From sequence record MN850579.1: a DNA stretch of 64,000 nucleotides; one strand, written 5' to 3'. Of the stretch, positions 23,198 to 54,779 are shown piece after piece (position 1 is the first letter of the stretch; every line of letters starts with the position of its first letter). The stretch is from Escherichia phage mogra. The position numbers and the translations under genes are program-made. The notes beneath the pieces were generated by a model. The model was not told the DNA's origin, searched no databases, and saw only the letters and a program-made list of their open reading frames with translations.

Positions 23198-23671
23198 ATG
23201 TTATTATCAGGCGCAAAATATAAAGAAGAAAAACAAAAATTTTATGATGCACAGAACGGTAAGTGTCCTATTTGCCACCGTGAATTAGACCCTGATGTTC
23301 AAGGTAACCATCTTGACCACGACCACGAATTAAACGGGCCAAAAGCTGGTAAGGTTCGTGGTTTACTATGTAACCTGTGCAATGCAGCAGAAGGCCAAAT
23401 GAAGCATAAGTTCAACCGTTCTGGTCTTAAAGGTCAAAACGTTGATTACCTCGAATGGCTTGAATCTCTTCTTGCTTATTTGAAACAAGATTATTCTGAT
23501 AATAATATCCATCCTAATTTTGTTGGAGATAAATCAAAGGAATTTTCTCGTTTAGGAAAAGAGGAAATGATGTCCGAGATGCTTCAAAGAGGATTTGAAT
23601 ATAATGAATCTGATACTAAAACACAATTAATAGCTTCATTCAAAAAGCAGCTTAGAAAGAGTTTAAAATGA
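23198..23671 (+). CDS. 49: endonuclease VII (Holliday junction resolvase)
   Basis: MLLSGAKYKEEKQKFYDAQNGKCPICHRELDPDVQGNHLDHDHELNGPKAGKVRGLLCNLCNAAEGQ... matches recalled T4 gp49; 157 aa. Confidence 0.93.
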   Translation: MLLSGAKYKEEKQKFYDAQNGKCPICHRELDPDVQGNHLDHDHELNGPKAGKVRGLLCNLCNAAEGQMKHKFNRSGLKGQNVDYLEWLESLLAYLKQDYSDNNIHPNFVGDKSKEFSRLGKEEMMSEMLQRGFEYNESDTKTQLIASFKKQLRKSLK

Positions 23672-25485: not shown

Positions 25486-25952
25486 ATTATGATAGATTTT
25501 ATCCTTGCGATTTTGTGAATGGCCCTGGATGCAGGGTCGTTCTTTTCGTTACGGGTTGTTTGCATAAATGCGAAGGGTGTTATAATAAATCAACATGGAA
25601 TGCTAGAAATGGTATTCCATTCACTGGTGAAACACTAGAACAATTAATTGAATGTTTGAATAATGATTATATAGAAGGATTAACTATAACCGGAGGTGAC
25701 CCTCTCTATCCTGATAACCGAGATGTTATTCATTGCATTGTTCAAACAGTAAAAAATCTTTATCCCAATAAAAGCATTTGGTTGTGGACAGGATATAAGT
25801 TTGAAGATATTAAACAACTAGAAATGCTTAAATATGTTGATGTTATTATTGATGGGAAGTATGAGAAAAATCTTCCGACCAAAAAGCTGTGGCGAGGATC
25901 AGATAATCAGCGGCTTTGGTCAAATACCGATGGGGTGTGGAAACATGATTAA
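25482..25952 (+). CDS. nrdG: anaerobic RNR activating enzyme (radical SAM)
   Basis: CxxxCxxC cluster CLHKCEGC; ATGA overlap with nrdD. Confidence 0.92.
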   Translation: MNYDRFYPCDFVNGPGCRVVLFVTGCLHKCEGCYNKSTWNARNGIPFTGETLEQLIECLNNDYIEGLTITGGDPLYPDNRDVIHCIVQTVKNLYPNKSIWLWTGYKFEDIKQLEMLKYVDVIIDGKYEKNLPTKKLWRGSDNQRLWSNTDGVWKHD

Positions 25953-27919: not shown

Positions 27920-28116
27920 ATCCTGAATCTATGTTATCTCAAAAACTTCGCGAAGAACGAGCTGAATTCTTTGCCAATATGAAACTCAACGGCGTTGAGG
28001 ATGAAGACTTCTTACGCTGGTTCTGGATTTACAAATACAAAGAATGCCAACACGCTGTGCTATTGACTTGCGCAGTTATGTACGAAGGCTGGAAAGGCGC
28101 TAAAAAGTTCGGATAA
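27916..28116 (+). CDS. hypothetical protein
   Basis: 66 aa. Confidence 0.5.
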   Translation: MNPESMLSQKLREERAEFFANMKLNGVEDEDFLRWFWIYKYKECQHAVLLTCAVMYEGWKGAKKFG

Positions 28117-28185
28117 CGATTTACAAACTCTTGAGAGCAGAGTATAATGCTCTCATTGGATAATAAAATAACCGAGGAAAATAAT

Positions 28186-28518
28186 ATGTCTACTAAAATC
28201 AAAAACGTAGTTAATTCTTTCGCTTTCGATAAAGTTGTTGCTCTTCTGGAATCCGGCAATATTGTTACTCCTCAAGTTCTTGACGCGTGGGAATTCCGTC
28301 TTTATGAAATCATGCAAAAACACGACCAGAAAATTGGACGTAATTCTATTCGCGAAATTCTAGTACAATATATTCTTTCTGAATTTGACGTTGCTGCATT
28401 TGGTGTTGAATCTAAAGCTTATCAGAAACATGAAATCTCTGAAAAGACTATCCGTCGTATGAAAAATCAACGTAAGAAAAAATTCGTTGATCTGAAAATT
28501 GTTAAGGCGGTAAAATGA
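28186..28518 (+). CDS. hypothetical protein
   Basis: ATG 28186 after GAGGAAA; track ATG 28147 sits inside the -10 element; 110 aa. Confidence 0.55.
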   Translation: MSTKIKNVVNSFAFDKVVALLESGNIVTPQVLDAWEFRLYEIMQKHDQKIGRNSIREILVQYILSEFDVAAFGVESKAYQKHEISEKTIRRMKNQRKKKFVDLKIVKAVK

Positions 28519-28742
28519 GCGTATTAACAGAAATTTTGATTAATGACCTGCGTCTAGCTGGTTACGAAGTTGGTACAAATAGCCTAGGTCTTCCTCAGAT
28601 TGAAGGTCCTGGATTTATTCTAGAATACGAATTCAAACAATGGTGGTTATATGCTACGGTTGACGATGCGTTGAATATTGATTTCGTTGACCAATTTGAT
28701 TCGTTGGATGCTGCCTTATTTGCAGCAAAGGAAATAGAATGA
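28515..28742 (+). CDS. hypothetical acidic protein
   Basis: ATGA overlap; 75 aa. Confidence 0.5.
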   Translation: MSVLTEILINDLRLAGYEVGTNSLGLPQIEGPGFILEYEFKQWWLYATVDDALNIDFVDQFDSLDAALFAAKEIE

Positions 28743-28897
28743 AACTATCTCGAATCACTATAACCGAAGAAAAGTTTGGTGAATTTTAAGTCGACAACTT
28801 TATAAAAGTTACGTATCTTTGATAGTATCTCGTGCTTTAAGATAGGTCTCTAAATATTATGATATAATAGACCTATGAATTGAGCCAAGAGGTACTT

Positions 28898-29455
28898 ATG
28901 ACTGAACAAAAACCTAAAAATAACTATGTGAATAATAAAGAGCTTCTCGCCGCTATAATCGAGTGGAAAAAGGAGCTCTTAAATAATAAAGACCCAAACA
29001 AAATTATTCGTCAGAATGATACTATCGGTTTAGCAATTATGCTTATCGCCGAAGGCCTGTCCAAACGTTTCAACTTTTCAGGATATACCCAGTCTTGGAA
29101 GCAGGAGATGATTGCAGATGGGATTGAAGCCTCTATTAAGGGACTTCATAATTTCGACGAAACTAAGTACAATAACCCACATGCATACATAACTCGAGCT
29201 TGTTTTAATGCTTTTGTCCAACGTATCAAAAAAGAACGTAAGGAAGTTGCAAAGAAATATAGTTACTTCGTTCATAATGTCTACGACAGTCATGACGATG
29301 ATATGGTAGCGTTGGTAGATGAAACGTTTATTCAAGACATCTACGATAAAATGACGCATTATGAAGAATCCGCTTATAAAGCTCCTGGGGCTGAAAAGAA
29401 GGAAGTTGTTAGCGATTCGCCTAGTTTGGATTTTTTATATGAGGATGACAATTGA
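28898..29455 (+). CDS. 55: late-transcription sigma factor gp55
   Basis: [83 protein letters not shown]... near-identical to recalled T4 gp55. Confidence 0.93.
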
Positions 29456-29654
29456 CATCTCTAACTACTTAGAAGAACCTTTTGACGAAGCAATCCCTTA
29501 TTTGGTAAAACTGTTGGGTCGTGAATTTAAAATTAATTTTGACATCGACCCTTTGAACCCACATGACGTGTCATTTTCAATAAATGGGACTCCGGTTGAG
29601 TATGAGTTCTGTATTGAAGAGGATGGACGTTTTTATTTTAATTTAATGAGATAA
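29439..29654 (+). CDS. hypothetical protein
   Basis: In-frame ATG 29439 overlapping gp55 end; 71 aa; start uncertain. Confidence 0.45.
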
Positions 29655-29655
29655 T

Positions 29656-29979
29656 ATGACTACCGAGATTATTGAAAATAAAGAAGCAGAAGATGCAGTA
29701 GCTAAAATGCTACAAGAAATCCAAAAGAAAAATGAAGCTGAAGCACGTAAAAAATCCGAAAAGATTCTTAAAAAGAATCGTTTTGAACTAAACCGTCTTT
29801 ATGCTCATGCTCAAGAAGCAGCAATTCAAAACAACTTCGAAGCTTACGAATATGCTATTAAGAAATCTCGGGATATTCTACGACAACCATATAATGACAA
29901 GTTAATTAAAATCCAGTGGGTTACTACTCGTCAGGCTATTGAGGACATCATTAATGGCGCTAGTTCAAACAAAGTTTAA
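29656..29979 (+). CDS. hypothetical protein
   Basis: TAATATG-coupled; coiled-coil-like; 107 aa. Confidence 0.5.
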   Translation: MTTEIIENKEAEDAVAKMLQEIQKKNEAEARKKSEKILKKNRFELNRLYAHAQEAAIQNNFEAYEYAIKKSRDILRQPYNDKLIKIQWVTTRQAIEDIINGASSNKV

Positions 29980-37083: not shown

Positions 37084-39795
37084 ATGAAAGAATTTTACTT
37101 AACGGTTGAACAGATTGGTGATTCAATTTTTGAACGTTACATCGATTCTAATGGCCGTGAACGTACTCGTGAAGTAGAATATAAACCATCACTGTTTGCT
37201 CATTGTCCAGAAAGTCAGGCTACGAAATATTTCGATATCTACGGTAAGCCGTGTACTCGTAAGCTGTTCGCTAATATGCGTGATGCCTCCCAATGGATTA
37301 AACGCATGGAAGATATCGGACTTGAAGCACTTGGCATGGACGATTTCAAATTGGCGTATTTGTCTGACACTTATAACTATGAAATCAAATACGACCATAC
37401 AAAAATTCGTGTGGCTAACTTCGACATCGAAGTAACATCTCCGGATGGGTTCCCTGAGCCGTCACAAGCAAAACATCCGATTGATGCTATCACCCATTAT
37501 GACTCAATTGACGACAGGTTCTACGTATTTGATCTATTGAATTCTCCATATGGTAATGTAGAAGAATGGTCTATTGAAATCGCTGCTAAGCTTCAAGAAC
37601 AAGGCGGTGATGAAGTTCCATCTGAAATTATCGATAAAATCATTTATATGCCGTTCGATAACGAAAAAGAATTGTTGATGGAATATCTCAACTTCTGGCA
37701 ACAGAAAACTCCTGTCATTTTGACTGGATGGAACGTTGAGTCATTTGATATTCCATATGTGTATAACCGAATCAAGAATATTTTTGGCGAATCTACTGCG
37801 AAACGTTTATCGCCACATCGTAAAACTCGTGTTAAAGTTATCGAAAACATGTATGGTTCTCGTGAAATCATTACATTGTTCGGTATCTCTGTTCTTGATT
37901 ACATTGACCTTTACAAAAAATTCTCTTTTACCAATCAACCGTCGTATTCTCTGGATTACATTTCAGAATTTGAATTGAACGTTGGTAAACTGAAATATGA
38001 CGGCCCTATTTCTAAACTTCGTGAAAGCAATCACCAACGATATATTTCTTATAACATTATCGATGTGTATCGTGTATTGCAAATTGATGCTAAGCGTCAG
38101 TTCATCAACTTGAGTTTGGACATGGGTTATTATGCTAAGATACAGATTCAATCTGTGTTTAGCCCAATTAAAACATGGGATGCTATTATTTTTAATAGCC
38201 TTAAAGAGCAGAACAAGGTGATTCCACAAGGTCGTTCTCACCCGGTTCAACCTTATCCTGGCGCTTTTGTTAAGGAACCTATTCCAAATCGATACAAATA
38301 TGTAATGAGTTTCGACCTTACATCTCTGTATCCAAGCATCATTCGCCAAGTGAATATTAGCCCAGAAACAATAGCAGGAACGTTTAAAGTAGCTCCATTA
38401 CATGATTATATTAACGCAATCGCTGAACGTCCTTCAGATGTGTACAGTTGTTCTCCTAACGGCATGATGTATTATAAAGACCGTGATGGTGTAGTTCCAA
38501 CTGAAATCACTAAGGTCTTTAATCAACGTAAAGAACATAAAGGTTACATGCTTGCAGCTCAACGTAATGGTGAAATAATTAAAGAGGCATTGCATAATCC
38601 TAATCTTTCTGTTGACGAACCATTAGATGTTGATTATCGTTTCGACTTCAGCGATGAGATTAAAGAAAAGATTAAAAAGTTGTCTGCTAAATCTCTTAAT
38701 GAAATGTTGTTTAGAGCTCAACGTACTGAAGTTGCAGGTATGACTGCACAAATTAACCGTAAATTGCTCATCAACTCACTTTATGGTGCACTTGGCAACG
38801 TTTGGTTCCGTTATTATGATTTGCGTAATGCTACTGCAATCACAACATTCGGGCAAATGGCTTTACAGTGGATTGAACGTAAAGTTAATGAATATCTGAA
38901 TGAAGTTTGTGGTACAGAAGGTGAAGCTTTCGTTCTTTATGGTGATACAGACTCCATTTACGTATCTGCGGATAAAATTATTGATAAGGTTGGTGAATCT
39001 AAATTCCGTGATACTAACCATTGGGTAGACTTCTTAGATAAGTTCGCTCGTGAACGTATGGAACCTGCTATTGATAGAGGTTTCCGTGAAATGTGCGAAT
39101 ACATGAATAATAAGCAACATTTGATGTTCATGGACCGAGAAGCTATTGCTGGCCCTCCGCTCGGTTCTAAAGGTATTGGTGGATTCTGGACTGGTAAGAA
39201 ACGTTATGCATTAAACGTGTGGGATATGGAAGGCACTCGTTATGCTGAGCCTAAACTCAAAATCATGGGTCTAGAGACTCAGAAATCTTCGACCCCTAAA
39301 GCAGTACAGAAAGCTCTTAAAGAATGTATTCGTCGTATGCTTCAAGAAGGTGAAGAATCATTACAAGAATATTTTAAAGAGTTTGAAAAAGAATTCCGTC
39401 AATTGAATTATATTAGCATCGCGTCGGTATCTTCTGCGAATAACATTGCTAAATATGATGTCGGTGGATTCCCTGGTCCCAAATGCCCGTTCCATATTCG
39501 TGGAATTCTGACGTATAACCGGGCTATCAAAGGTAATATCGATGCACCACAAGTTGTAGAAGGTGAAAAAGTATATGTTCTGCCTTTACGTGAAGGAAAC
39601 CCATTCGGTGATAAATGTATCGCATGGCCTTCTGGCACTGAAATAACAGATTTAATTAAAGACGACGTACTTCATTGGATGGACTACACTGTTCTCCTTG
39701 AGAAGACATTTATTAAACCACTTGAAGGATTCACATCAGCAGCGAAACTCGATTACGAGAAGAAAGCATCTCTGTTCGATATGTTCGATTTTTGA
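37084..39795 (+). CDS. 43: DNA polymerase gp43 (family B)
   Basis: Exo I motif ANFDIEVT; polymerase motif LYGDTDSIYV; 903 aa. Confidence 0.95.
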   Translation: MKEFYLTVEQIGDSIFERYIDSNGRERTREVEYKPSLFAHCPESQATKYFDIYGKPCTRKLFANMRDASQWIKRMEDIGLEALGMDDFKLAYLSDTYNYEIKYDHTKIRVANFDIEVTSPDGFPEPSQAKHPIDAITHYDSIDDRFYVFDLLNSPYGNVEEWSIEIAAKLQEQGGDEVPSEIIDKIIYMPFDNEKELLMEYLNFWQQKTPVILTGWNVESFDIPYVYNRIKNIFGESTAKRLSPHRKTRVKVIENMYGSREIITLFGISVLDYIDLYKKFSFTNQPSYSLDYISEFELNVGKLKYDGPISKLRESNHQRYISYNIIDVYRVLQIDAKRQFINLSLDMGYYAKIQIQSVFSPIKTWDAIIFNSLKEQNKVIPQGRSHPVQPYPGAFVKEPIPNRYKYVMSFDLTSLYPSIIRQVNISPETIAGTFKVAPLHDYINAIAERPSDVYSCSPNGMMYYKDRDGVVPTEITKVFNQRKEHKGYMLAAQRNGEIIKEALHNPNLSVDEPLDVDYRFDFSDEIKEKIKKLSAKSLNEMLFRAQRTEVAGMTAQINRKLLINSLYGALGNVWFRYYDLRNATAITTFGQMALQWIERKVNEYLNEVCGTEGEAFVLYGDTDSIYVSADKIIDKVGESKFRDTNHWVDFLDKFARERMEPAIDRGFREMCEYMNNKQHLMFMDREAIAGPPLGSKGIGGFWTGKKRYALNVWDMEGTRYAEPKLKIMGLETQKSSTPKAVQKALKECIRRMLQEGEESLQEYFKEFEKEFRQLNYISIASVSSANNIAKYDVGGFPGPKCPFHIRGILTYNRAIKGNIDAPQVVEGEKVYVLPLREGNPFGDKCIAWPSGTEITDLIKDDVLHWMDYTVLLEKTFIKPLEGFTSAAKLDYEKKASLFDMFDF

Positions 39796-39835: not shown

Positions 39836-40471
39836 ATGAAAACTACACCAATCACTATCGCTATTGACGCAATTGTAAAACAAGCTTCATCTCTTGCCAC
39901 TATGGCTAAAGTAATTAGTCAAAACCATGCTCGTTATAATGCTATTCTAGAAACTCTTCGACGCCCTGGACTTAGTAATTATGAAAGCCGGGTAATTATT
40001 ACAGGTGTTGGTAAGAATGCTAATATCGCAACTAAAGCTTCCGAGACTTTTGCTTCACTAGGTATTCCTAGCATGTATTTGAATACCGGGCATTATTCTC
40101 ATGGTGACGCAGGATTTATTGCACCTAATGATGTATTAGTTCACATCAGTCGTTCTGGTAAGACTGAAGAAATGATAGGTGTTGCTAAACATCTTCGTAT
40201 GATTCGTCCTCAGGTTAAACAGATTCTGTTACATTGTAACCCTGACATTCCACAAGAATACGAAGCTCTTTTTGATTATACGTTCTGTACCGGTATCGCG
40301 GTAGAAGTTGACGAGAACTCTTTAGCTCCGACAATGTCTACTACATTGTTGTTAGCGCTTATCGATACGTTCGCTATCAACCTTTCGTCTGAACGTGGAT
40401 TTACCTCTAATGATTTCCTTAAGTTCCATCCAGGCGGTGCACTAGGTGCCATGTTACGAGGCGAACAATGA
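39836..40471 (+). CDS. SIS-domain sugar-phosphate isomerase, arabinose-5-phosphate isomerase (KpsF/GutQ)-like
   Basis: ITGVGKNANIATKASETFASLG, HISRSGKTEE, LAPTMSTT and HPGGALG match recalled KpsF/GutQ SIS signatures; no CBS domains. Confidence 0.78.
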   Translation: MKTTPITIAIDAIVKQASSLATMAKVISQNHARYNAILETLRRPGLSNYESRVIITGVGKNANIATKASETFASLGIPSMYLNTGHYSHGDAGFIAPNDVLVHISRSGKTEEMIGVAKHLRMIRPQVKQILLHCNPDIPQEYEALFDYTFCTGIAVEVDENSLAPTMSTTLLLALIDTFAINLSSERGFTSNDFLKFHPGGALGAMLRGEQ

Positions 40472-40611
40472 AAGCAATAACAATAGGACTTTTACTATTG
40501 ATGCTTGCCATGACTATCTACTGGAGCTTAACGGCTCCGGTAATGATTCCAACACTTGTAATTGGATGGATTATGATTGGACTACAAGCAAAGTATGAAT
40601 GCTTTAACTAG
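40468..40611 (+). CDS. 47-aa two-helix membrane peptide
   Basis: ATG 40468 overlaps upstream stop (ATGA); MKAITIGLLLLMLAMTIYW...PTLVIGWIMIGL; not in track. Confidence 0.45.
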   Translation: MKAITIGLLLLMLAMTIYWSLTAPVMIPTLVIGWIMIGLQAKYECFN

Positions 40612-40652
40612 AATAGTGTACAATACTCCTACTTACCAATGAGGACTTCAAC

Positions 40653-42338
40653 ATGAAAAAAGCTGTTATTCTTGGTGCTGGACTGGCAACTCGTTTGTAT
40701 CCAATAACGCATCATATTCCTAAGGTGCTTGTGAACTATAAACAAGACACTATTCTGAGCAATTTGTATACAATTTATTCTGACCTTGGCGCAGATGAAA
40801 TTATTGTAGTAGTTCATTCAAAATTTGCTGAAACTGTTCGAGCTTATTGTGAGCAAGAAGGGTTCAATGTGACTATTCGTACAGTTGATGAAGCGTATGG
40901 TTCTGCTTATGCTCTTGCTAAATTACACAAAGATTTAGACGGTCATAATGTAATTGTTAACTGGTGCGATATTATTCCTGATTTTGGTTCATGGTCTTGG
41001 AATGTTAACGCAATCTATGTTAAGGGTGATGAATGTCGATATAATTTCGACGGTGAAAATATCACTAACGTAGGTTCAACAGGTGGTAATGTTGTAGGAA
41101 TTTATCAGTTCAAAGACTGGGAATTCTATATGGGTTCTACTGATGAGGAAATTCATGAATACTGCAAAGGACGTGATTTCGTAGAATTCCTTTACAGCGC
41201 CGCATTCAATAAATCAGAGCTTATGAATCTAATTGATTTAGGTGATATGCCTAAACTTGAAAAGGCTCATGAAGTTCGTGAACTTAATCGTAGTTTTAAC
41301 GCAGTTGAAATTGGTGAAGAAACTGTAACTAAATTCGCATTAACCGAACAGGGTCGAGCTCTTCAGAAAGATGAGATTTCATGGTATTTGAAAGTGAAAT
41401 CAGATTCAGTTCCTCAGTTAGTTTCTGTTAATGAAAATAACTTTGAAATGGAACGCATTAAAGGTAAGCCAGCATTTGAATATATTAAATCCAAATCAAG
41501 TCTTGCTCGTCCACAAATTGTTGATGCAATTTTAGATGCACTGAAATTCAGCACAGACACTTATTTTGTAAGTCCTGAAACTGTTCGTCGTGATTTCACT
41601 AAAGAATTCTATACGAAAGTTATTGATCGTTGTGAAAGCATTCAACCATTGATTGATTCATTTGGTAAAATCACGCATGTGAACTACACTAAGATTGGAC
41701 GTCTGAAGCCAATGCTGAAACAAGCTTTAGAACACCTTATTCGTTATCATAACCGTTCTCAGGGACAGTACTCTGTTATTCATGGCGACCCGAACTTCAG
41801 TAATACTATGATTACTGATAATGGCGAAGTCAAGTTTATCGACCCTCGTGGATATTTTGGTGAAACCAAGATTTACGGGCCGAAATTGTACGACGAAGCT
41901 AAAGTGCTTTACGCTGTTTCAGGTTATGATGAATTCAACGCTAATCCGACCTGGGGGCAGTTTACTATTGATGAAACAACTTGTAATGTGACTATTAACA
42001 TCAATCCATTAGTTTACAAATATGGAAAGATGAGTTCGTTTAACGAGTATCATCATTTGGCAGTGGCAATTATCTGGATTGCATTAGGTGGTTATTTCAA
42101 GAATAATCCACTTAAAGCGGTAGCCGCATATTATAAAGGTATGGAACTTCTGACTAAGCAATTACGTAACATGGGCCGTGTACTTCAGGACGGCTCTATT
42201 AGTTATGACGTAGCAGAACCTGTAACGGCTACTCTGATTACAAAAAATCCTGGTAAGTGGGTACTAACTGATAAAGAAACTGGTGTTTCCTATCGTCCAA
42301 TAGGTGGCGATATCACTCATCAATGGGAACGAATCTAA
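40653..42338 (+). CDS. bifunctional sugar-1-phosphate nucleotidyltransferase / APH-fold sugar kinase
   Basis: N-terminal LGAGLATRLYP...PK (GxGxR NTP-transferase motif); C-terminal VIHGDPNFSNTMITDNGEVKFIDPRG (kinase catalytic and metal loops); 561 aa. Confidence 0.72.
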   Translation: MKKAVILGAGLATRLYPITHHIPKVLVNYKQDTILSNLYTIYSDLGADEIIVVVHSKFAETVRAYCEQEGFNVTIRTVDEAYGSAYALAKLHKDLDGHNVIVNWCDIIPDFGSWSWNVNAIYVKGDECRYNFDGENITNVGSTGGNVVGIYQFKDWEFYMGSTDEEIHEYCKGRDFVEFLYSAAFNKSELMNLIDLGDMPKLEKAHEVRELNRSFNAVEIGEETVTKFALTEQGRALQKDEISWYLKVKSDSVPQLVSVNENNFEMERIKGKPAFEYIKSKSSLARPQIVDAILDALKFSTDTYFVSPETVRRDFTKEFYTKVIDRCESIQPLIDSFGKITHVNYTKIGRLKPMLKQALEHLIRYHNRSQGQYSVIHGDPNFSNTMITDNGEVKFIDPRGYFGETKIYGPKLYDEAKVLYAVSGYDEFNANPTWGQFTIDETTCNVTININPLVYKYGKMSSFNEYHHLAVAIIWIALGGYFKNNPLKAVAAYYKGMELLTKQLRNMGRVLQDGSISYDVAEPVTATLITKNPGKWVLTDKETGVSYRPIGGDITHQWERI

Positions 42339-42724
42339 TGCACCGCGTAGAAAACATGCTTAATCTTTGTTTTGATGTCGATGATTGTATAACAGAGTGG
42401 AATAACAATCGTGATTACGTGAACTTCAAGCCAGACGTCGAAATGGTGTCTGCCATTAATGCCCTGTATGATGCAGGGCATACCATAACGCTTTACACTG
42501 CTCGCGGTATGAAGTCAGTCGGTCCTGGTCGTATAGCAATTGACATTCTCCCAAGTCTGATTCAGAACTTGGCAAACATTGGCTTGAAGTACCATAATTT
42601 GCTAACACATAAACCAGTATATGATTGGATTATCGACGACAAAGCTATGCGTCCTGACGAATTCAAAGCTCTTATGAATAAAGGCGAATTCGAAACATTT
42701 AAATCATATAAACCGAATCTATAA
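42338..42724 (+). CDS. HAD-superfamily phosphatase
   Basis: Motif I CFDVDDCIT, Thr/Arg motif LYTARG, C-terminal DD (WIIDDKA); ATG 42338 overlaps upstream stop (TAATG). Confidence 0.6.
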   Translation: MHRVENMLNLCFDVDDCITEWNNNRDYVNFKPDVEMVSAINALYDAGHTITLYTARGMKSVGPGRIAIDILPSLIQNLANIGLKYHNLLTHKPVYDWIIDDKAMRPDEFKALMNKGEFETFKSYKPNL

Positions 42725-42784
42725 TAATTTAAGTAAGACCTGCAAAAAAAAACCATCGCATCAATTAACGCGAGATGCAAAAAA

Positions 42785-43945
42785 ATGAATACTTTTAAAA
42801 TCGGAACGAATTTTGATTTAGCTCTTCTTGATAAAATCGTAGAGCTCAATAAAACTTATCCTAATAGCTTGATAAATGAAGTATACGGCTCTACAAGAGA
42901 AATGGCTTTTGTAGCAGCCAGACCTGATTTTAGGCTTCCTGACATTGACAAAAAGATGTTAGAAGATTATGTTAAACGTTGTAACGAATTAGGTATTTGC
43001 TTTAACTATACACTCAACACGATAAATCCTGGTTCAAAAAGAGAACTAGTTGAGTGGAAGAAGAAAGCTATTCAGGATTATGTTCAGTATCTTTGGTCAA
43101 TAGGCGTATGGCGTATTACTATCGCTAACCCTGTTGTTATGGAAATTGTTCGTGAAGTCAATAAAGACATTGAGATTGAAGTTTCAACAATTCTACATGT
43201 CGATGCTGTAACTCAAATCAAATACTTGCATGACCAGTATAATATCAAAAAGGTCTGCTGTGGAATTCATAAGAACCGTTCAGTTTCTTTCCTGAAGCGT
43301 GCAGCAGAGTTTTGCAATAAGAACAATATAATATTTGAAGTTCTTGTAAATGAGTTCTGTTCTAATGCTGGTAAAGGGTATACAACACATTGTAGCTATC
43401 GTGACTCTTGCTATATTTTCCATAGTACTGATGTTACAGCTGATGATGCTAAATCCTTAAACGGATATCCAATGCAGCACTGTATTAAAGCTCGTGATAC
43501 AGACCCATTTAACTGGTTGAGAACTCGTTTTGTTCGTCCTCAAGATTTGAAACTTTATAATGATATCGGTATCACTCAATTCAAAGTTTCAGGACGTACA
43601 GGTAGCACAGACTACATTTTGAAAGTTCTTGAAGCATACGCTTCTGAAAAGTTTGAAGGTAATTTGTTAGAACTGTGGAAGCCTTTAGAGACTATTTTCA
43701 CTCTTGAAAACGAAACTGAGTTTTCACATACAGTAAATATTGAAACCTCTTTGTTAGATGGCTTTTTAGAAAAAAGGTGGTTCAGACATCCAGATTTCGA
43801 TTGTGCTAATGAAATCTGCGGGACGACGTGTACATATTGTGAAAGATATTATAAACGTCAATTATCTAAAAACGGGTTAGCAGAAAACTCTATATCTATT
43901 ATTGATATAACTAACTCTGATGACGCTTTGAGGTACCCGGAATGA
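42785..43945 (+). CDS. peptidase-U32-family protein (family includes O2-independent hydroxylases)
   Basis: Block pattern FNYTLNT...ITIANPVV...EIEVST...VLVNEFC...G...HCSYRDSC parallels recalled U32 TIM-barrel signature; second cluster CANEICGTTCTYC. Confidence 0.5.
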   Translation: MNTFKIGTNFDLALLDKIVELNKTYPNSLINEVYGSTREMAFVAARPDFRLPDIDKKMLEDYVKRCNELGICFNYTLNTINPGSKRELVEWKKKAIQDYVQYLWSIGVWRITIANPVVMEIVREVNKDIEIEVSTILHVDAVTQIKYLHDQYNIKKVCCGIHKNRSVSFLKRAAEFCNKNNIIFEVLVNEFCSNAGKGYTTHCSYRDSCYIFHSTDVTADDAKSLNGYPMQHCIKARDTDPFNWLRTRFVRPQDLKLYNDIGITQFKVSGRTGSTDYILKVLEAYASEKFEGNLLELWKPLETIFTLENETEFSHTVNIETSLLDGFLEKRWFRHPDFDCANEICGTTCTYCERYYKRQLSKNGLAENSISIIDITNSDDALRYPE

Positions 43946-44181
43946 TTTCTAGAAAAACTTTTAACCACCGACTTAATGAAGAGATTTTGACTATGAAACT
44001 GAACACTAATGAACAAATTCTTAAAAAGGCCCTGATGGGCCTGTTTGAAACTAAAGCGGCTAAAGTGATTAAAGAACCTGTTCAATTGGAATACTACGCT
44101 GATGCATTTCTTCATAGTGTTCTTGGAAGTATCGATGCTGAATCTTTACGTTATATCAACATTGTCAAGAAATTCAAATAA
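43942..44181 (+). CDS. hypothetical small protein
   Basis: ATGA overlap with U32-like gene; 79 aa; no motif. Confidence 0.45.
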   Translation: MISRKTFNHRLNEEILTMKLNTNEQILKKALMGLFETKAAKVIKEPVQLEYYADAFLHSVLGSIDAESLRYINIVKKFK

Positions 44182-44223
44182 GCTTTACGAATTGAGTATA
44201 TAATAAATTGTATTGAGGTAAAC

Positions 44224-44940
44224 ATGGGAAAACATAACACAATGAAATATATCAAAGCCGCAGATTTTCAAACCGCATTTAAAGCAGTCAATCGTGAAAT
44301 TTTAGAAAACCCGGAATTCGTAACTGATTCTCGTATTGGACGTTGTAATGAAATTGGGTCTATGACAGTAGTTGTTGACACTCCATCATCATTCAAAATG
44401 ACCGACCCACGTATTAACCGCATCTCTTATGAATATGCCGAAGACTTCTGGAAGTTTATGATTTCCGGTGGTACCAACGCAGAAGAAGCGTTTAAGGCAT
44501 ATCCTAATGTCGCTAAATTTATTTCTAAACCAAAATCAGATGTTTTGCCGGCGAACTTCAACACTTTCTATGGTCCTCGCATTGCGGCCCAATTACCAGC
44601 TCTTCTAAAAGAACTTAAAGAGAAGCCTAACTCTCGAAGAGTTGTGTTCCAAATTCTAGAAAGTTCTGATCAGGCTTTGCTTGATTCGGACGAAACGCTT
44701 GAATATCCATGTACTGACTCAGTGACTTATTATATTCGTGATGGTAAGCTTTATACCCACTGTCATATGCGTTCTCAGAACTGTGCTGTTGTTATGCAGT
44801 TGGATTTTTATCTCCAAGGAAAATTACTTCATTATATCGCTAACGAATGTGGTGTAGAAGTTGGTGATTATACTCATACCATGGTAAGTGCCCATGTGTT
44901 TGAACGTGATTTTGATTATGTTAAAGGATTCCTTGACTAA
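44224..44940 (+). CDS. thymidylate-synthase-fold pyrimidine C5 enzyme, dCMP hydroxymethylase-like, divergent
   Basis: PNSRR phosphate loop; catalytic Pro-Cys (YPCTD); MRSQN...QLDFY with Asp at the ThyA Asn177-equivalent position; EVGDY...H. Confidence 0.78.
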   Translation: MGKHNTMKYIKAADFQTAFKAVNREILENPEFVTDSRIGRCNEIGSMTVVVDTPSSFKMTDPRINRISYEYAEDFWKFMISGGTNAEEAFKAYPNVAKFISKPKSDVLPANFNTFYGPRIAAQLPALLKELKEKPNSRRVVFQILESSDQALLDSDETLEYPCTDSVTYYIRDGKLYTHCHMRSQNCAVVMQLDFYLQGKLLHYIANECGVEVGDYTHTMVSAHVFERDFDYVKGFLD

Positions 44941-45839
44941 TGGCTATTTTCCGCGTACCAATCTTGAGTATGCGGTCTTATGAAACTGGACAGTATGCTA
45001 TCCTTAAGGATGGCAACTTCCAACTTCATTTGCACCGTGCTAATCCAGGCGATGTGATTACATATCCACGTAATGCATCTGATATTAAAGAATGTGAACG
45101 TCTTTTCCCAGAATTTAAGTTTGTTCCATTATGGTATAAAGATAACGCGTATAACACTCGTAAATATTTCTGGTCCGAAAATGAATTTGTGGTTGATTCA
45201 TTAATTGCTTATTATGATTGTGATTTTCTAATCACAGATATCACTGGATATAACGGCGCTTTTGATGTAGAATTCAATTTCAATATCACGGCAGACCCTA
45301 ATAAACCACGTTTTTATATTGGCGAATTCTTAAAAACCGATATGTTGTCAGTTAATAGTTCACTTCAAACTACTGTGTTGAATGAACGTCAAAAAGAAGT
45401 GCTGGTTAACGCAGGTGCAGATGGTAATAAGATTATCGTAACTCAGAAAGTTATACGTCCTTCCATCATGCAGCGTCTTGTAGGTGATTTGGCTCCTATT
45501 CATCTAGATGGTATTTTTCATCCATTTCGAATTAGTGACCCGTGCTATCGTTTTGAACAAGTGGTTGAATGTGCAATTCAATTAGGCCAACCGCTTTATA
45601 TAACCGATCCAAATAATAGCTTCGACAGAAATAAGTATCCTGAAGAAGCGCTGATTCGAATTTTTAAACCAACTAAAACTGAGTACTATCAAATTCTTAA
45701 AGGACGTCCGAAGATTCAATATTTCGAAAATCCTGAAGAAGTATTTCATCCAGGTCTTGGTGAGTTCATCTACTTTAATGCTTTAATTTCTTCGCCGTAT
45801 AATATACCTAAATACGAAGATGTCGTAATCGAGGAATAA
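44940..45839 (+). CDS. hypothetical protein (299 aa), candidate DNA sugar transferase
   Basis: TAATG-coupled to the TS-fold gene; no recognisable motif; function inferred from context only. Confidence 0.5.
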   Translation: MAIFRVPILSMRSYETGQYAILKDGNFQLHLHRANPGDVITYPRNASDIKECERLFPEFKFVPLWYKDNAYNTRKYFWSENEFVVDSLIAYYDCDFLITDITGYNGAFDVEFNFNITADPNKPRFYIGEFLKTDMLSVNSSLQTTVLNERQKEVLVNAGADGNKIIVTQKVIRPSIMQRLVGDLAPIHLDGIFHPFRISDPCYRFEQVVECAIQLGQPLYITDPNNSFDRNKYPEEALIRIFKPTKTEYYQILKGRPKIQYFENPEEVFHPGLGEFIYFNALISSPYNIPKYEDVVIEE

Positions 45840-45840
45840 A

Positions 45841-46389
45841 ATGGCTAAAATTATTTTAGTAGATGGCCCGGATAATGCCGGTAAAACAACTTTCATTAAT
45901 GACATAATGGAAATTAGTGAAAGATATGTAAAGATTGATTTCCCTAAACGAACAGTTGATGGACGTTTCGATGTTAAGTCTCGAAATGAAGTTGGTTGTT
46001 TCGAAACGATGTTGAATTATTTAGACCCTACTAAGATTTATCTGTTAGACCGTGGATATATTAGTAACTGGGTTTATGGACGTATTCGACAAGATGCGGA
46101 CTCTGTTCTTGATGTTTATGAGCAGGATTATGTTCGTCTTTGCCAAAACCATGATGTGTTCACAATTATTTTAACACGTAACGAAATGACTGAAAGTTTT
46201 GAAGACGACCTTATTACTTTGTCTTCATTCGGTTTTAATACAGTCATTTCACATTTTGAAGAGTTTGCAATTCATAACAAAATCCAAACGTATCAATTAC
46301 TTAATCATGATGGTGCTAACAAAGTTATAGGATTTAATGCAAGCGAACGTAATGGTTTGATTACAGAAATCATCAAATGGGCTCGTTAA
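45841..46389 (+). CDS. P-loop nucleotide kinase (thymidylate-kinase-like)
   Basis: P-loop VDGPDNAGKTT; DRGY motif (LLDRGYISNWVYGR) reminiscent of Tmk DRY/DRH; 182 aa. Confidence 0.62.
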   Translation: MAKIILVDGPDNAGKTTFINDIMEISERYVKIDFPKRTVDGRFDVKSRNEVGCFETMLNYLDPTKIYLLDRGYISNWVYGRIRQDADSVLDVYEQDYVRLCQNHDVFTIILTRNEMTESFEDDLITLSSFGFNTVISHFEEFAIHNKIQTYQLLNHDGANKVIGFNASERNGLITEIIKWAR

Positions 46390-46487: not shown

Positions 46488-47660
46488 ATGTCTGATTTAA
46501 AATCTCGTCTGATTAAAGCTTCTACTTCTAAAATGACTGCAGACTTGACTAAGTCTAAGCTGTTTAATAATCGTGATGAAGTCCCTACTCGTATTCCGAT
46601 GTTGAATATCGCACTAGGTGGTGCTCTGAATGCAGGATTGCAATCAGGCTTGACTATTTTTGCTGCACCTTCTAAACATTTTAAAACATTGTTTGGACTG
46701 ACCATGGTTGCAGCATATATGAAGAAATATAAAGATGCAATTTGTTTGTTCTATGATTCGGAATTTGGTGCTTCAGAATCTTATTTTCGATCAATGGGTG
46801 TTGATTTAGACCGAGTAGTTCATACTCCGATTCAATCTGTCGAACAACTTAAAGTTGATATGACTAATCAGCTTGACGCGATTGAACGCGGCGATAAAGT
46901 TATTATCTTTATCGATTCAATCGGTAATACTGCATCTAAGAAAGAAACCGAAGATGCGTTGAACGAGAAAGTTGTAGGTGATATGTCTCGTGCTAAGGCA
47001 CTTAAATCTCTTTTCCGTATTGTGACTCCTTATCTGACTATTAAAGATATTCCATGTGTTGCAATCAACCATACAGCAATGGAAATTGGCGGATTGTATC
47101 CTAAAGAGATTATGGGCGGCGGTACAGGTATTCTTTACTCGGCTAACACTGTATTCTTTATCTCTAAACGTCAGGTTAAAGATGGCACTGAATTGACCGG
47201 TTATGACTTCACGTTGAAAGCAGAAAAATCTCGCACAGTTAAAGAGAAATCTACTTTCCCAATCACAGTTAATTTTGATGGTGGTATCGACCCATTCAGT
47301 GGCTTGTTAGAAATGGCAACTGAAATTGGATTTGTTGTTAAGCCTAAAGCCGGTTGGTATGCTCGTGAATTCCTTGACGAAGAAACAGGCGAAATGATTC
47401 GTGAAGAGAAATCGTGGCGTGCTAAAGCTACTGATTGTGTAGAATTCTGGGGACCGTTGTTTAAACACAAACCTTTCCGAGATGCAATTGAAACTAAATA
47501 TAAACTAGGTGCTATCTCTTCTATTAAAGAAGTTGATGACGCTGTTAACGACCTTATTAATTGCAAAGCAACAACTAAAGTTCCTGTTAAAACTTCTGAT
47601 GCTCCGTCTGCAGCAGATATAGAAAACGACCTTGACGAAATGGAAGATTTCGATGAATAA
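46488..47660 (+). CDS. uvsX: recombinase UvsX (RecA-like)
   Basis: MSDLKSRLIKASTSKMTADLTKSKLFNNRDEVPTRIPMLNIALGG... and ...GWYAREFLDEETGEMIREEKSWRAK... match recalled T4 UvsX; 390 aa. Confidence 0.95.
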   Translation: MSDLKSRLIKASTSKMTADLTKSKLFNNRDEVPTRIPMLNIALGGALNAGLQSGLTIFAAPSKHFKTLFGLTMVAAYMKKYKDAICLFYDSEFGASESYFRSMGVDLDRVVHTPIQSVEQLKVDMTNQLDAIERGDKVIIFIDSIGNTASKKETEDALNEKVVGDMSRAKALKSLFRIVTPYLTIKDIPCVAINHTAMEIGGLYPKEIMGGGTGILYSANTVFFISKRQVKDGTELTGYDFTLKAEKSRTVKEKSTFPITVNFDGGIDPFSGLLEMATEIGFVVKPKAGWYAREFLDEETGEMIREEKSWRAKATDCVEFWGPLFKHKPFRDAIETKYKLGAISSIKEVDDAVNDLINCKATTKVPVKTSDAPSAADIENDLDEMEDFDE

Positions 47661-54168: not shown

Positions 54169-54257
54169 AATATCTCCTTAGTTACCTATTATTTATTACG
54201 CTTTATAAAATTAATGGTAGAATTAAACTCTCTTATACTGAATTGAAAGGAAAAATA

Positions 54258-54779
54258 ATGGCGCACTTTAATGAATGTTCACAACTTATTTCTGGTGTTG
54301 ATAAAGCAGAAGAAGCTTATTTTAATGCTCTGATTCACGAAGATAAAGACCCACTTCAGGTAATGCTTGATATGCAGAAATCTTTACAGGTTCGTCTGGC
54401 AAATGACAAGCCTGAACATAACAAACATCCTGATGAATTGGCTACTGCTGGTGATGTTGTTGATTGGCTGCGTAATCAGAAAGATTATATTGATGATGAA
54501 TTCCGTGAACTGTTGACTTCACTTGGTGGTATGAGCAATGGTGAAAAAGCCGCCAGCAGTGTATGGAAGCCTTGGAAAGCACAACATGCTGAATATCGAA
54601 ATCGTCGTATCGATGAACTGTCTCCTGAAGACCAGCTTGAAATTAAATTTGAGATGATTGATATTCTTCATTTCGTTCTGAATATGTTCCAGGGTCTTGG
54701 TCTTACAGCAGAAGAAATCTTTAAACTTTACTACTTGAAAAACCAACACAACTTTGAACGCCAGGATAATGGTTACTGA
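54258..54779 (+). CDS. 56: dCTP pyrophosphatase gp56 (MazG-like)
   Basis: ATG 54258 after AGGA; all-alpha MazG-like NTP-PPase; position between 61 and soc; 173 aa. Confidence 0.8.
   Translation: MAHFNECSQLISGVDKAEEAYFNALIHEDKDPLQVMLDMQKSLQVRLANDKPEHNKHPDELATAGDVVDWLRNQKDYIDDEFRELLTSLGGMSNGEKAASSVWKPWKAQHAEYRNRRIDELSPEDQLEIKFEMIDILHFVLNMFQGLGLTAEEIFKLYYLKNQHNFERQDNGY

Follow-up and report, generated by a model that had tools for sequence, protein, structure and literature searches.

The arabinosyl-5-hydroxycytosine cassette of Escherichia phage mogra and its U32-family protein, a candidate prephenate-dependent pyrimidine hydroxylase

The genome of Escherichia phage mogra carries nine open reading frames (ORFs) on the plus strand in the gap between the DNA polymerase gene 43 (37084-39795) and uvsX (46488-47660). 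This locus raises the question of which DNA modification the nine genes serve and what the U32-family protein encoded in their midst might contribute. It was analysed within a window of 64,000 nucleotides (sequence record MN850579.1), to which coordinates refer unless another record is named. The interval is very probably the arabinosyl-5-hydroxycytosine DNA hypermodification cassette of the RB69-type Mosigvirus (RB69 genes 45-55), and the U32 protein is a candidate for an additional, oxygen-independent hydroxylase of the base. The order of the flanking genes (45-44-62-regA-43 ... uvsX-40-41) is the same as in T4 (45-44-62-regA-43-imm.1-imm-42-beta-gt-segA-uvsX-40-41). A preliminary description, made from the sequence letters alone, had placed the nine genes in the imm-42-beta-gt slot of a T4-collinear region, and the T4 gene order agrees with this.

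At least 80% of the 6.55-kb interval was found by megablast in 151 phage records at 95-99% identity, all of them RB69-like, which shows that the interval is not a chance feature. At the DNA level it shares 97.1% identity with RB69 24.0-30.6 kb and 98.5% with other Mosigvirus-type phages, and its genes correspond one-to-one to RB69p045-p055, in agreement with the early pointer to RB69-type phages. The DNA polymerase and UvsX proteins of the window are 100% identical to those of RB69. Thomas et al. (2018) flagged the RB69 cluster as the likely source of an arabinose donor (PMC6024577), and the pathway drawn up by Lee et al. (NAR 2026) includes gp45-gp55 (PMC13326640). RB69 DNA contains mono- and di-arabinosylated 5-hydroxycytosine with the linkage beta-D-Araf-3-alpha-D-Araf (Araf, arabinofuranose) and an ether bond to C5; with this cassette RB69-type phages replace every cytosine of their DNA by the arabinose-decorated base, which blocks many restriction enzymes (PMC13326640). 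The base structure, the hydroxylase, the dNMP kinase step and, as far as they are relayed there, the activities of AfhE and AfhF were demonstrated for orthologs from RB69, HY126 or DLP3 (PMC13326640). We infer the roles of the isomerase, of the GT-B glycosyltransferase (GT1) and of the Tmk-like kinase. The published RB69 cluster bears out the expectation of one cytosine-hypermodification unit with a private sugar supply, a dCMP enzyme of the thymidylate synthase (TS) fold and a nucleotide kinase; the supposition that the system was undescribed has to be given up, since it corresponds to RB69 gp45-gp55, flagged in 2018 (PMC6024577) and dissected in 2026 (PMC13326640). Nothing substantive counts against this reading at the level of the cassette, which is already described and not new; the remaining novelty is the U32 protein. 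Further accounts of the pathway are said to be given by He et al. (Nat Chem Biol 2026) and Mahler et al. (Cell Host Microbe 2025).

The identity of the modified base depends on the TS-fold ORF, which scored 56.9 bits against Pfam Thymidylat_synt (cut-off 24.3) and along its entire length shares 98% identity with the proteins of PDB entries 9iqc, 9ir2 and 9iqu; its identity to RB69 gp48 is 99% (tblastn). In an alignment of this protein with E. coli ThyA and T4 gp42, the catalytic Cys146 (ThyA numbering) is invariant. Glu at L143 and Asp at N177 form the cytosine-type pocket common to T4 gp42, as had been recognised in the preliminary description. At ThyA D169 the window protein has Asn (RSQN, vs RSCD in ThyA and RSND in T4 gp42), so that the gp42-type Asp169 is lacking, and its identity to gp42 is 21%. 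The earlier statement that the machinery is not that of T4 glucosyl-5-hydroxymethylcytosine (glucosyl-hmC) holds. Asn at this position is the published signature of a hydroxylase as opposed to a hydroxymethylase, and criteria for the dCMP pocket are given in the same paper (PMC13326640). RB69 gp48 yields 5-hydroxydeoxycytidine (5hodC; 243 Da, co-eluting with the standard), incorporates 18O from 18O2 and has bound flavin mononucleotide (FMN; PMC13326640). By its signature residues and its kinship with gp48, the window protein is predicted to be a flavin- and O2-dependent dCMP C5 hydroxylase.

Hydroxymethylation of dCMP as in T4 gp42, and thus an arabinosyl-hmC product, was the model of 2018, in which Thomas et al. 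interpreted their own data from high-performance anion-exchange chromatography and matrix-assisted laser desorption/ionization (PMC6024577). It agrees with the two cytosine-type substitutions N177D and L143E, common to gp42, and with the many GenBank records that annotate the TS homolog as dCMP hydroxymethylase. For RB69, however, it has already been refuted by the published structure determination: nuclear magnetic resonance and liquid chromatography-mass spectrometry place the arabinose by an ether on C5 via the 5-hydroxyl, and the product, 18O2 label and FMN of gp48 point the same way (PMC13326640). With Asn instead of Asp at position 169 and near-identity to the crystallised homologs, there is hardly any probability left for this model in the window. 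The glycosylated 5-hydroxymethylpyrimidine of the preliminary description has likewise to be replaced by 5-hydroxycytosine with ether-linked arabinofuranose (PMC13326640), as the D169N signature indicates.

The U32 protein (386 amino acids, aa) matches Pfam Peptidase_U32 with residues 94-286 (42.2 bits, cut-off 22.4) and, weakly, UbiU in NCBIfam (E 8e-4), while a sequence search of the PDB gave no match at E up to 1. The two Cys clusters announced in the preliminary description are C192/C203/C209/C233 and C340-x4-C345-x3-C349-x2-C352. The U32 proteins of phages form a separate clade of 48-89% identity in which ten Cys are kept without exception, even by members at 48% identity; the window protein is 99.5% identical to that of HY126. 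With 17-23% identity to UbiU, UbiV, TrhP and RlhA of E. coli, it lies outside these four subfamilies, and the C-terminal DUF3656 region of RlhA has no counterpart in it (386 aa vs 653 aa). The characterised proteins bind a 4Fe-4S cluster with a conserved four-Cys motif. C192 aligns with UbiU C169, TrhP C170 and RlhA C169, and C203 or C209 with Cys3 or Cys2, two alignments differing in this respect. All four Cys of the first cluster are invariant in the phage clade and fall within the region of this motif, and the cluster at 340-352 is invariant too. Among the cassette proteins U32 is the most conserved, with 80-89% identity across genera whose other cassette proteins reach 44-79%. Compared with Shewanella phage Thanatos-2, for instance, identity is 80% for U32, 71% for the hydroxylase, 68% for UvsX, 54% for the nucleotidyltransferase-kinase (NTase-kinase), 47% for GT1 and 44% for the kinase.

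The characterised members of the family are linked to hydroxylations. RlhA is needed for 5-hydroxycytidine 2501 (ho5C2501) in 23S rRNA and requires Fe-S biogenesis and prephenate (PMC5727448), TrhP accounts for the prephenate-dependent formation of ho5U34 in parallel with the O2-dependent TrhO (PMC6599085), and for UbiU/V prephenate was identified as the labelled oxygen donor in anoxia (PMC10990095). The U32 domain is what the window protein has in common with these E. coli systems (TrhO/TrhP for ho5U34 in tRNA, UbiI,H,F/UbiU,V for ubiquinone, and RlhA). RlhA and TrhP are associated with hydroxylation at C5 of cytosine or uracil, the position that is modified in the DNA made with the cassette, and a U32 protein beside an O2-using enzyme for one product would repeat the TrhP/TrhO pattern. 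The differences lie, apart from the low identity, in the spacing of the Cys residues, in the additional C-terminal CX4CX3CX2C and in the presumed substrate, which would be a deoxynucleotide or DNA instead of RNA or a quinone.

The neighbourhoods of related genes give further indications. Hundreds of metagenomic U32 relatives with 48-58% identity were detected, of which nine loci were sampled. All nine lie in nucleotide-metabolism clusters, and eight are clearly phage replication modules with DnaE-type polymerases. Their neighbours include genes for dCMP deaminase, thymidylate-kinase-like proteins, MazG- or dUTPase_2-type pyrophosphatases and proteins of the uracil-DNA glycosylase (UDG) family. 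In four loci a GT1 homolog (E 5e-12 to 1e-16) is located directly upstream of U32, overlapping it in three and separated by a 4-nt gap in one; a Tmk-like gene follows further upstream in three of the four. A fifth locus (L022) has homologs of GT1, of the arabinose-5-phosphate isomerase (E 1e-19) and of the NTase-kinase (E 2e-47) upstream of U32, and downstream of it a gene similar to 3-deoxy-D-arabino-heptulosonate 7-phosphate (DAHP) synthase, with 237 bits vs 63 bits for 3-deoxy-D-manno-octulosonate 8-phosphate (KDO8P) synthase. No TS homolog was found within 7-8 kb in any of the nine loci. With GT1 and Tmk homologs upstream of U32 and no TS homolog nearby, the hydroxylase-GT1-Tmk core recurs here with U32 in the position of the hydroxylase.

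The sampled loci differ in their further gene content. The L022 locus (L022:4939-10804, on an 80-kb DnaE-type phage contig) also holds a gene similar to NAD-dependent sugar epimerases/reductases after the DAHP-synthase-like gene and could represent a DNA glycosylation cassette of the arabinose type in which U32 takes the place of a TS homolog. On a 61-kb contig (L029:5777-14179), a Gly_transf_sug gene, a short ORF weakly matching Tmk, a GT1 homolog, U32 and a weak TAGT-like (Tet-associated glycosyltransferase) gene are followed by a dUTPase/dCTP deaminase gene, two genes without Pfam matches and a UDP-galactopyranose mutase gene, the latter being reminiscent of the galactofuranose-using system of Rhizobium phage RL38J1. 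Three huge-phage-like contigs (L021, L023 and L027, one of them 466 kb long) have a recurring block of genes for a radical SAM/SPASM protein, a protein of about 403 aa with a weak tRNA-queuosine-mannosyltransferase-N match, thymidylate kinase, a UDG domain (encoded on its own or as part of the polymerase gene), DnaE polymerase, dCMP deaminase (L021 and L023), U32, a conserved protein of about 250 aa without assigned function and single-stranded DNA-binding protein; the content of this block suggests a module for DNA base modification that has not been described before. A further contig (L025:8001-15428) has two U32 genes together with genes for an NT5C deoxyribonucleotidase, a nicotinamide-mononucleotide-type transporter, a deoxynucleoside kinase, a radical SAM/SPASM protein and a nucleoside 2-deoxyribosyltransferase. 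It looks like a cluster for nucleoside-level modification or salvage; glycoside hydrolase and dockerin genes in the vicinity suggest that the contig may derive from a bacterium or a prophage.

Chorismate mutase (CM) produces prephenate. A CM gene is located next to or near U32 in nine lineages other than that of the window, with scores above the gathering threshold of Pfam CM_2: Kanagawavirus (Entb_45, PEi26), Winklervirus (LC53), Marfavirus and Mosugukvirus, where it lies after or near U32, and likewise Bragavirus, Tegunavirus, Kagamiyamavirus and Thanatos-2. The phage CMs retain the catalytic-type Arg, Arg, Lys, Glu, Ser and Gln columns. The family was found in 51 phage records, only in U32-bearing lineages and always beside U32 or the TS homolog, and in Thanatos-2 the U32-CM pair was relocated together to the other side of the kinase gene. 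Konradin, an Acinetobacter phage, Dhakavirus Bp7 and Jiangsuvirus PspYZU05 have collinear cassettes with neither U32 nor CM. The cassette of Klebsiella phage Clarke_MM3 has U32 and no ORF in the CM slot.

U32 was detected in 221 phage records, whose listed hosts are Enterobacterales or Shewanella, and the hydroxylase homolog in 373, including 57 Acinetobacter and 20 Rhizobium phages. Among the phage records listed, U32 was found only in lineages with a 5-hydroxy-dCMP (5hodCMP) synthase cassette, of which its gene forms part or, as in Thanatos, marks the border, and it was not found for the aerobes Acinetobacter and Rhizobium among the listed hosts. A strict rule by which the aerobiosis of the host decides on the presence of U32 is ruled out by E. 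coli phage Bp7, which has no U32; the weaker statement that U32 was not found in phages of obligate aerobes is retained. The window also encodes an anaerobic ribonucleotide reductase NrdD (23668-25485, Pfam NRDD 571 bits, a single ORF of 605 aa) and its activase NrdG (25482-25952). An indirect comparison indicates that NrdD is missing from most Acinetobacter phages, as Acinetobacter accounts for fewer than 33 records and falls below the ten most frequent hosts listed. In the closely related phage JK45, nrdD is broken by a homing endonuclease gene; it is intact in the window.

Since the U32 family is linked to O2-independent, prephenate-dependent hydroxylation, and in RlhA and TrhP to that of pyrimidine C5, the reaction which the cassette needs, and in view of the CM and DAHP-synthase-like neighbours, the distribution and conservation of U32 and its place beside GT1 homologs in DnaE-type phages, we propose that the U32 protein is a prephenate-dependent, Fe-S-containing and O2-independent pyrimidine C5 hydroxylase, an assignment to which we give roughly even chances. 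The enzyme would turn dCMP (or dCTP, or cytosine in DNA) into the 5-hydroxy form without O2 and would back up the flavin- and O2-dependent hydroxylase during anaerobic growth of the host, as NrdDG does beside the aerobic reductase. In the genera with CM, the phage would boost the supply of its own oxygen donor, whereas the Mosigvirus of the window would draw on the prephenate of the host enzymes PheA/TyrA.

Several observations weigh against this assignment. The window has no recognisable CM in any reading frame, which would leave PheA/TyrA of the host as the source of prephenate. The canonical four-Cys spacing of U32 proteins is not kept, only Cys1 and, depending on the alignment, Cys2 or Cys3 being matchable. 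About 40 Escherichia phages (e.g., Dhakavirus Bp7) have the O2-dependent hydroxylase without U32 in a facultatively anaerobic host, and the correlation with host aerobiosis is confounded by phage phylogeny. The metagenomic phages may encode TS homologs elsewhere in their genomes. Lee et al. label the protein 'sugar or heterocycle reductase' (PMC13326640). This label, which appears in a table only, is what the literature consulted offers on the protein (PMC13326640), in line with the earlier remark that U32 is without precedent in phage DNA modification. Full-text searches returned no paper tying U32, prephenate or CM to phage 5-hydroxycytosine or arabinosylation, a negative that does not extend to the accounts of He et al. 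(2026) and of Mahler et al. (2025).

Other roles of U32 are rated lower because the DLP3-type phages make the sugar modification without U32 and because its neighbourhoods consistently consist of DNA-precursor genes. A reductase or other redox enzyme that serves the sugar branch or has the heterocycle as its substrate, perhaps tailoring the arabinose or the nucleotide donor, would fit the label of Lee et al., the position of the gene in the window, with the HAD phosphatase gene on one side and base-branch genes on the other, and the location of U32 between the sugar-activation genes and the NAD-epimerase-type gene in L022. We consider it unlikely, as sugars are not a known substrate of any U32 member and the characterised ones are tied to hydroxylation (PMC5727448, PMC6599085, PMC10990095), Acinetobacter phages of the DLP3 type have the same arabinofuranosyl modification without the protein, and the CM and DAHP-synthase neighbours indicate prephenate instead of sugar chemistry. 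Hydroxylation of phage or host tRNA or rRNA by U32, together with CM where present and with no role in DNA modification, is improbable as well: the protein lacks the DUF3656 region of RlhA, it is confined to the 5hodCMP-synthase-cassette lineages among the listed phages, and in unrelated phages its neighbours are genes for GT1, Tmk, dCMP deaminase, dNTP pyrophosphatase and DNA polymerase. In favour of an RNA substrate it can be said that T4-like phages encode tRNAs of their own and that both characterised pyrimidine-directed U32 proteins act on RNA. (These are RlhA and TrhP; PMC5727448, PMC6599085.) The database annotations 'peptidase' and 'collagenase-like protease' suggest a collagenase-like peptidase, and a dispensable passenger was considered along with it. 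Such explanations are very improbable in view of the conservation of U32 above that of all other cassette proteins, of ten invariant Cys that better suit a metalloenzyme and of a peptidase mechanism that was never defined for the family (PMC5727448).

If the C5 hydroxylase role is extended from the window protein to its relatives, the U32 gene would found an undescribed phage clade of Fe-S- and prephenate-dependent C5 hydroxylases acting on DNA precursors or DNA. Its members would be O2-independent twins of the flavin enzyme in the T4-like phages of enterobacteria and Shewanella, often accompanied by a CM to provide the oxygen donor, and the only hydroxylase in DnaE-type phages, where they would supply a glycosylation module of GT1 and Tmk. 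We put forward this extension tentatively, with chances just short of even.

In the pathway as we envisage it, the sugar branch would start with the isomerization of ribulose-5-phosphate to arabinose-5-phosphate by the SIS protein. The kinase half of the 561-aa enzyme would then form Araf-1,5-bisphosphate, from which the small HAD phosphatase would take off the 5-phosphate, and the nucleotidyltransferase half would produce UDP-arabinofuranose. In the base branch, the TS-fold enzyme would hydroxylate dCMP at C5 with flavin and O2, and a gp1-type dNMP kinase encoded beyond the window would, with host enzymes, lead to the triphosphate, while the dCTPase at 54.2-54.8 kb would clear dCTP. The 299-aa GT-B enzyme would set the first arabinose on the 5-hydroxyl, and a second transferase past the end of the window would add the next. 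The coordinates of the genes are compiled in Table 1.

Table 1. Genes of the nine-gene interval and the dCTP pyrophosphatase gene in the window
Feature	Position	Strand	Equivalent and basis of assignment
Putative arabinose-5-phosphate isomerase, SIS only	39836..40471	+	RB69 gp55 equivalent; Pfam, NCBIfam, PHROG 5670
47-aa hydrophobic peptide	40468..40611	+	RB69 gp54 equivalent; PHROG 3610 (unknown function), E 4.5e-27
Bifunctional NTase-kinase, 561 aa	40653..42338	+	RB69 gp52:53, HY126 AfhE type; Pfam and motif
Small HAD-type phosphatase	42338..42724	+	RB69 gp51, AfhF type; TIGR01689, PHROG 1238
U32-family protein, 386 aa	42785..43945	+	RB69 gp50 equivalent; Pfam Peptidase_U32
79-aa ORF	43942..44181	+	RB69 gp49 equivalent; PHROG 8601, unknown function
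Putative 5-hydroxy-dCMP synthase, TS fold	44224..44940	+	RB69 gp48 equivalent; Pfam Thymidylat_synt
GT-B glycosyltransferase (GT1), 299 aa; proposed arabinosyltransferase 1	44940..45839	+	RB69 gp46:47 equivalent
Tmk-like P-loop kinase, 182 aa	45841..46389	+	RB69 gp45 equivalent; PHROG 761
dCTP pyrophosphatase, T4 gp56/RB69p028 type, beyond the nine-gene interval	54243..54779	+	Pfam dUTPase_2 29.3 bits

Nine co-oriented and mostly coupled genes had been described beforehand, and the ORF positions and junctions agree with this. ATGA overlaps occur at 40468/40471 and 43942/43945, a 1-nt overlap at 44940 and a 1-nt spacer at 45839/45841, a pattern consistent with translational coupling. The HAD start is ambiguous: the first in-frame ATG at 42323 gives 133 aa and a 16-nt overlap with the upstream gene, and the start used in the annotated relatives (JK45, RB69) at 42338 gives 128 aa and a 1-nt overlap with the upstream stop codon. 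Each of the nine ORFs matched a PHROG family, and Pfam returned SIS, NTP_transferase with weak kinase matches, Peptidase_U32 and Thymidylat_synt; the family calls made at the outset (SIS, NTP_transferase/kinase, HAD, U32, TS) thus hold in the Pfam, NCBIfam and PHROG profile searches. Base composition is even throughout. A horizontal acquisition of the cassette, as judged from composition, was dismissed, as no compositional anomaly was seen across the interval.

The RB69 reference sequence NC_004928 splits the glycosyltransferase gene (p046/p047, region 24597-25497) and the NTase-kinase gene (p052/p053, region 28094-29780) and annotates gp54 as 36 aa, whereas the window ORFs are intact at 299, 561 and 47 aa. 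This is in line with the published view of the RB69 splits as sequencing errors; according to the resequencing by Thomas et al. (2018), ORF052/053 of RB69 is one gene (PMC6024577). In several genera the cassette is interrupted by homing endonuclease genes, whose insertion points vary (L008:3854-4492, L019:3827-4465, L016:1852-2490 and L014:3696-4379): between the HAD gene and U32 in LC53, Vettismorki and PEi26, and between U32 and CM in Proteus phage PM2.

Concerning the sugar branch, the isomerase ORF (211 aa) matched Pfam SIS with 38.9 bits and the NCBIfam family KpsF/GutQ (TIGR00393) with 110.8 bits (E 8.5e-32, residues 52-207), below the equivalog cut-off. Against KdsD it reached 105.7 bits (cut-off 505) and covered profile positions 47-202 of 328. 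The tandem CBS pair of KdsD/GutQ, and with it the full SIS and CBS architecture, is absent. The protein matches PHROG 5670 'arabinose 5-phosphate isomerase' (E 2.6e-116) and maps to RB69p055, for which the conversion of ribulose-5-phosphate to arabinose-5-phosphate was proposed (PMC13326640). A homolog of this isomerase was not detected in the cassettes of Clarke_MM3 and Bp7. In the 561-aa ORF, residues 3-99 match Pfam NTP_transferase and residues 344-409 weakly match APH/fructosamine-kinase-type profiles, and the translation contains the kinase motif HGDPNFSN (HxDxxxxN). The C-terminal kinase half is proposed to convert arabinose-5-phosphate into Araf-1,5-bisphosphate, and the N-terminal half Araf-1-phosphate into UDP-Araf; kinase and pyrophosphorylase activities of HY126 AfhE are reported from He et al. 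2026 as relayed by Lee et al. (PMC13326640). The HAD ORF matched the capsule-biosynthesis phosphatase family TIGR01689 below cut-off (E 4.3e-13) and PHROG 1238 (E 5.3e-43) and has a DVDD (DxD) motif near its N-terminus. Its proposed role, the dephosphorylation of Araf-1,5-bisphosphate to Araf-1-phosphate, is taken from Lee et al., who relay from He et al. 2026 the phosphatase step of HY126 AfhF (PMC13326640). The NDP-arabinofuranose donor is not known in Enterobacteriaceae, and therefore the phage carries the sugar-activation genes (PMC13326640).

In the base branch, the 299-aa ORF was one of two orphans of the preliminary description. It is a GT-B glycosyltransferase by structure, its two Rossmann-like domains superposing on known GT-B enzymes with 6kih as top match; the other, the 79-aa ORF, stays an orphan without profile or fold match. 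The same entry is the top GT-B match in the work of Lee et al. (PMC13326640). The protein is proposed to add the base-proximal alpha-Araf to the 5-hydroxyl. The role of arabinosyltransferase was also proposed by Lee et al., in whose hands single transferases were inactive on DNA containing 5-hydroxycytosine (5hoC) and who cannot tell whether the first arabinose goes on the mononucleotide or on DNA (PMC13326640). By synteny with JK45, the gene for the second arabinosyltransferase (RB69p003 homolog) lies just past the end of the window. The 182-aa ORF has a P-loop and matches PHROG 761 'thymidylate kinase' (E 5.7e-45); Pfam gave nothing significant and NCBIfam a weak dTMP-kinase match (E 0.006), while structural matches are reported in the literature (PMC13326640). 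Its gene adjoins GT1 in most lineages examined. In Clarke_MM3 and Bp7, the Tmk-like gene precedes the hydroxylase gene instead of following GT1. As the stage of the first arabinosylation is undecided and single transferases are inactive on 5hoC DNA (PMC13326640), it is conceivable that the Tmk-like protein would serve as a kinase for arabinosyl-5hodCMP, the 5-hydroxy-dCMP product itself being phosphorylated by the gp1-type kinase (PMC13326640). The dCTPase, which by position equals the 'dCTP pyrophosphatase' of JK45 and is listed in Table 1 of Lee et al. (PMC13326640), belongs to the pathway because canonical dCTP is removed and only the modified nucleotide is incorporated.

The two smallest ORFs, whose RB69 equivalents gp49 (79 aa) and gp54 (47 aa) receive no mention in the paper of Lee et al. 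(PMC13326640), differ in their distribution. The 79-aa ORF, without a Pfam or NCBIfam match, occupies the slot of the AroQ chorismate mutase of other genera. The family does not extend beyond the Mosigvirus-type phages, and there are copies shortened to 47-58 aa (metagenomic and NCBI relatives P0022-P0032). The ORF is 92% identical to its RB69 counterpart, vs 99% for U32 and the TS homolog, which together with the shortened copies suggests relaxed selection. The AlphaFold2 model consists of three helices (predicted local distance difference test 71.5) and gave no Foldseek match. The possibility that it is a diverged or decayed CM was rejected as unsupported: CM_2 was not matched at E up to 10, with 33-47 bits for the positional counterparts, hhalign against the phage CM profile gave a probability of 0.1%, the conserved R, R, K, E, S and Q columns have no counterpart, and the sole BLASTP match, to LC53, is N-terminal and 12 residues long (E 0.24). 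A CM remnant was sought in all frames of the slot and of the whole window, and none was found. Homologs of the 47-aa peptide with 57-64% identity were found in Entb_45, LC53, Vettismorki and Bp7 and not in Konradin, Thanatos-2, Clarke_MM3 or PspYZU05; in several genera the gene keeps its place behind that of the isomerase.

Genes and gene order of the cassette are those of the arabinosyl-5-hydroxycytosine pathway in RB69, HY126 (Afh), DLP3 and Serratia phage LC53, with 97% DNA identity to RB69. From RB69 and HY126 the window shows essentially no difference, including the hydroxylase signature and the 6kih match, whereas the DLP3-type cassettes are without the U32, 79-aa and 47-aa genes and have extra transferases. 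The glucosyl-hmC system of T4 (gp42, gp56, gp1, alpha- and beta-glucosyltransferases) uses the same slot between gene 43 and uvsX and follows the same logic: a TS-fold enzyme acts on dCMP, a dCTPase and a dNMP kinase take part, and a GT-B transferase glycosylates the hydroxyl thus made. In contrast to the folate-derived hydroxymethyl group of T4, the hydroxyl in the window system would be placed directly on C5 with flavin and O2 (D169N); the sugar is arabinofuranose, and T4 has no U32 gene. Rhizobium phage RL38J1, with glycosylated 5-hydroxycytosine, likewise has a TS-fold 5hodCMP synthase, a neighbouring glycosyltransferase and a Tmk-like kinase. Its sugars are a hexose and galactofuranose, with a UDP-galactopyranose mutase, and U32 was not found in the listed Rhizobium phages.

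The arabinosyl-5-hydroxycytosine cassette matters as a counter-defence, and another RB69-like copy adds little to this. For the U32 gene, so far unexplained, the comparative evidence makes a specific and testable hypothesis. If it is true that U32 is an anaerobic hydroxylase, this would explain how cytosine can be fully replaced in the gut despite the O2 requirement of the known hydroxylase. U32 would be the first enzyme of its family that acts on DNA building blocks, the use of prephenate as an oxygen donor would extend to viruses, and the gene would serve as a sequence marker for hydroxylated or glycosylated DNA bases in uncultured phages without a TS homolog. In the DnaE-type phages it would represent, after the TS homologs and the TET/JBP dioxygenases, a third enzymatic origin of hypermodified pyrimidines.

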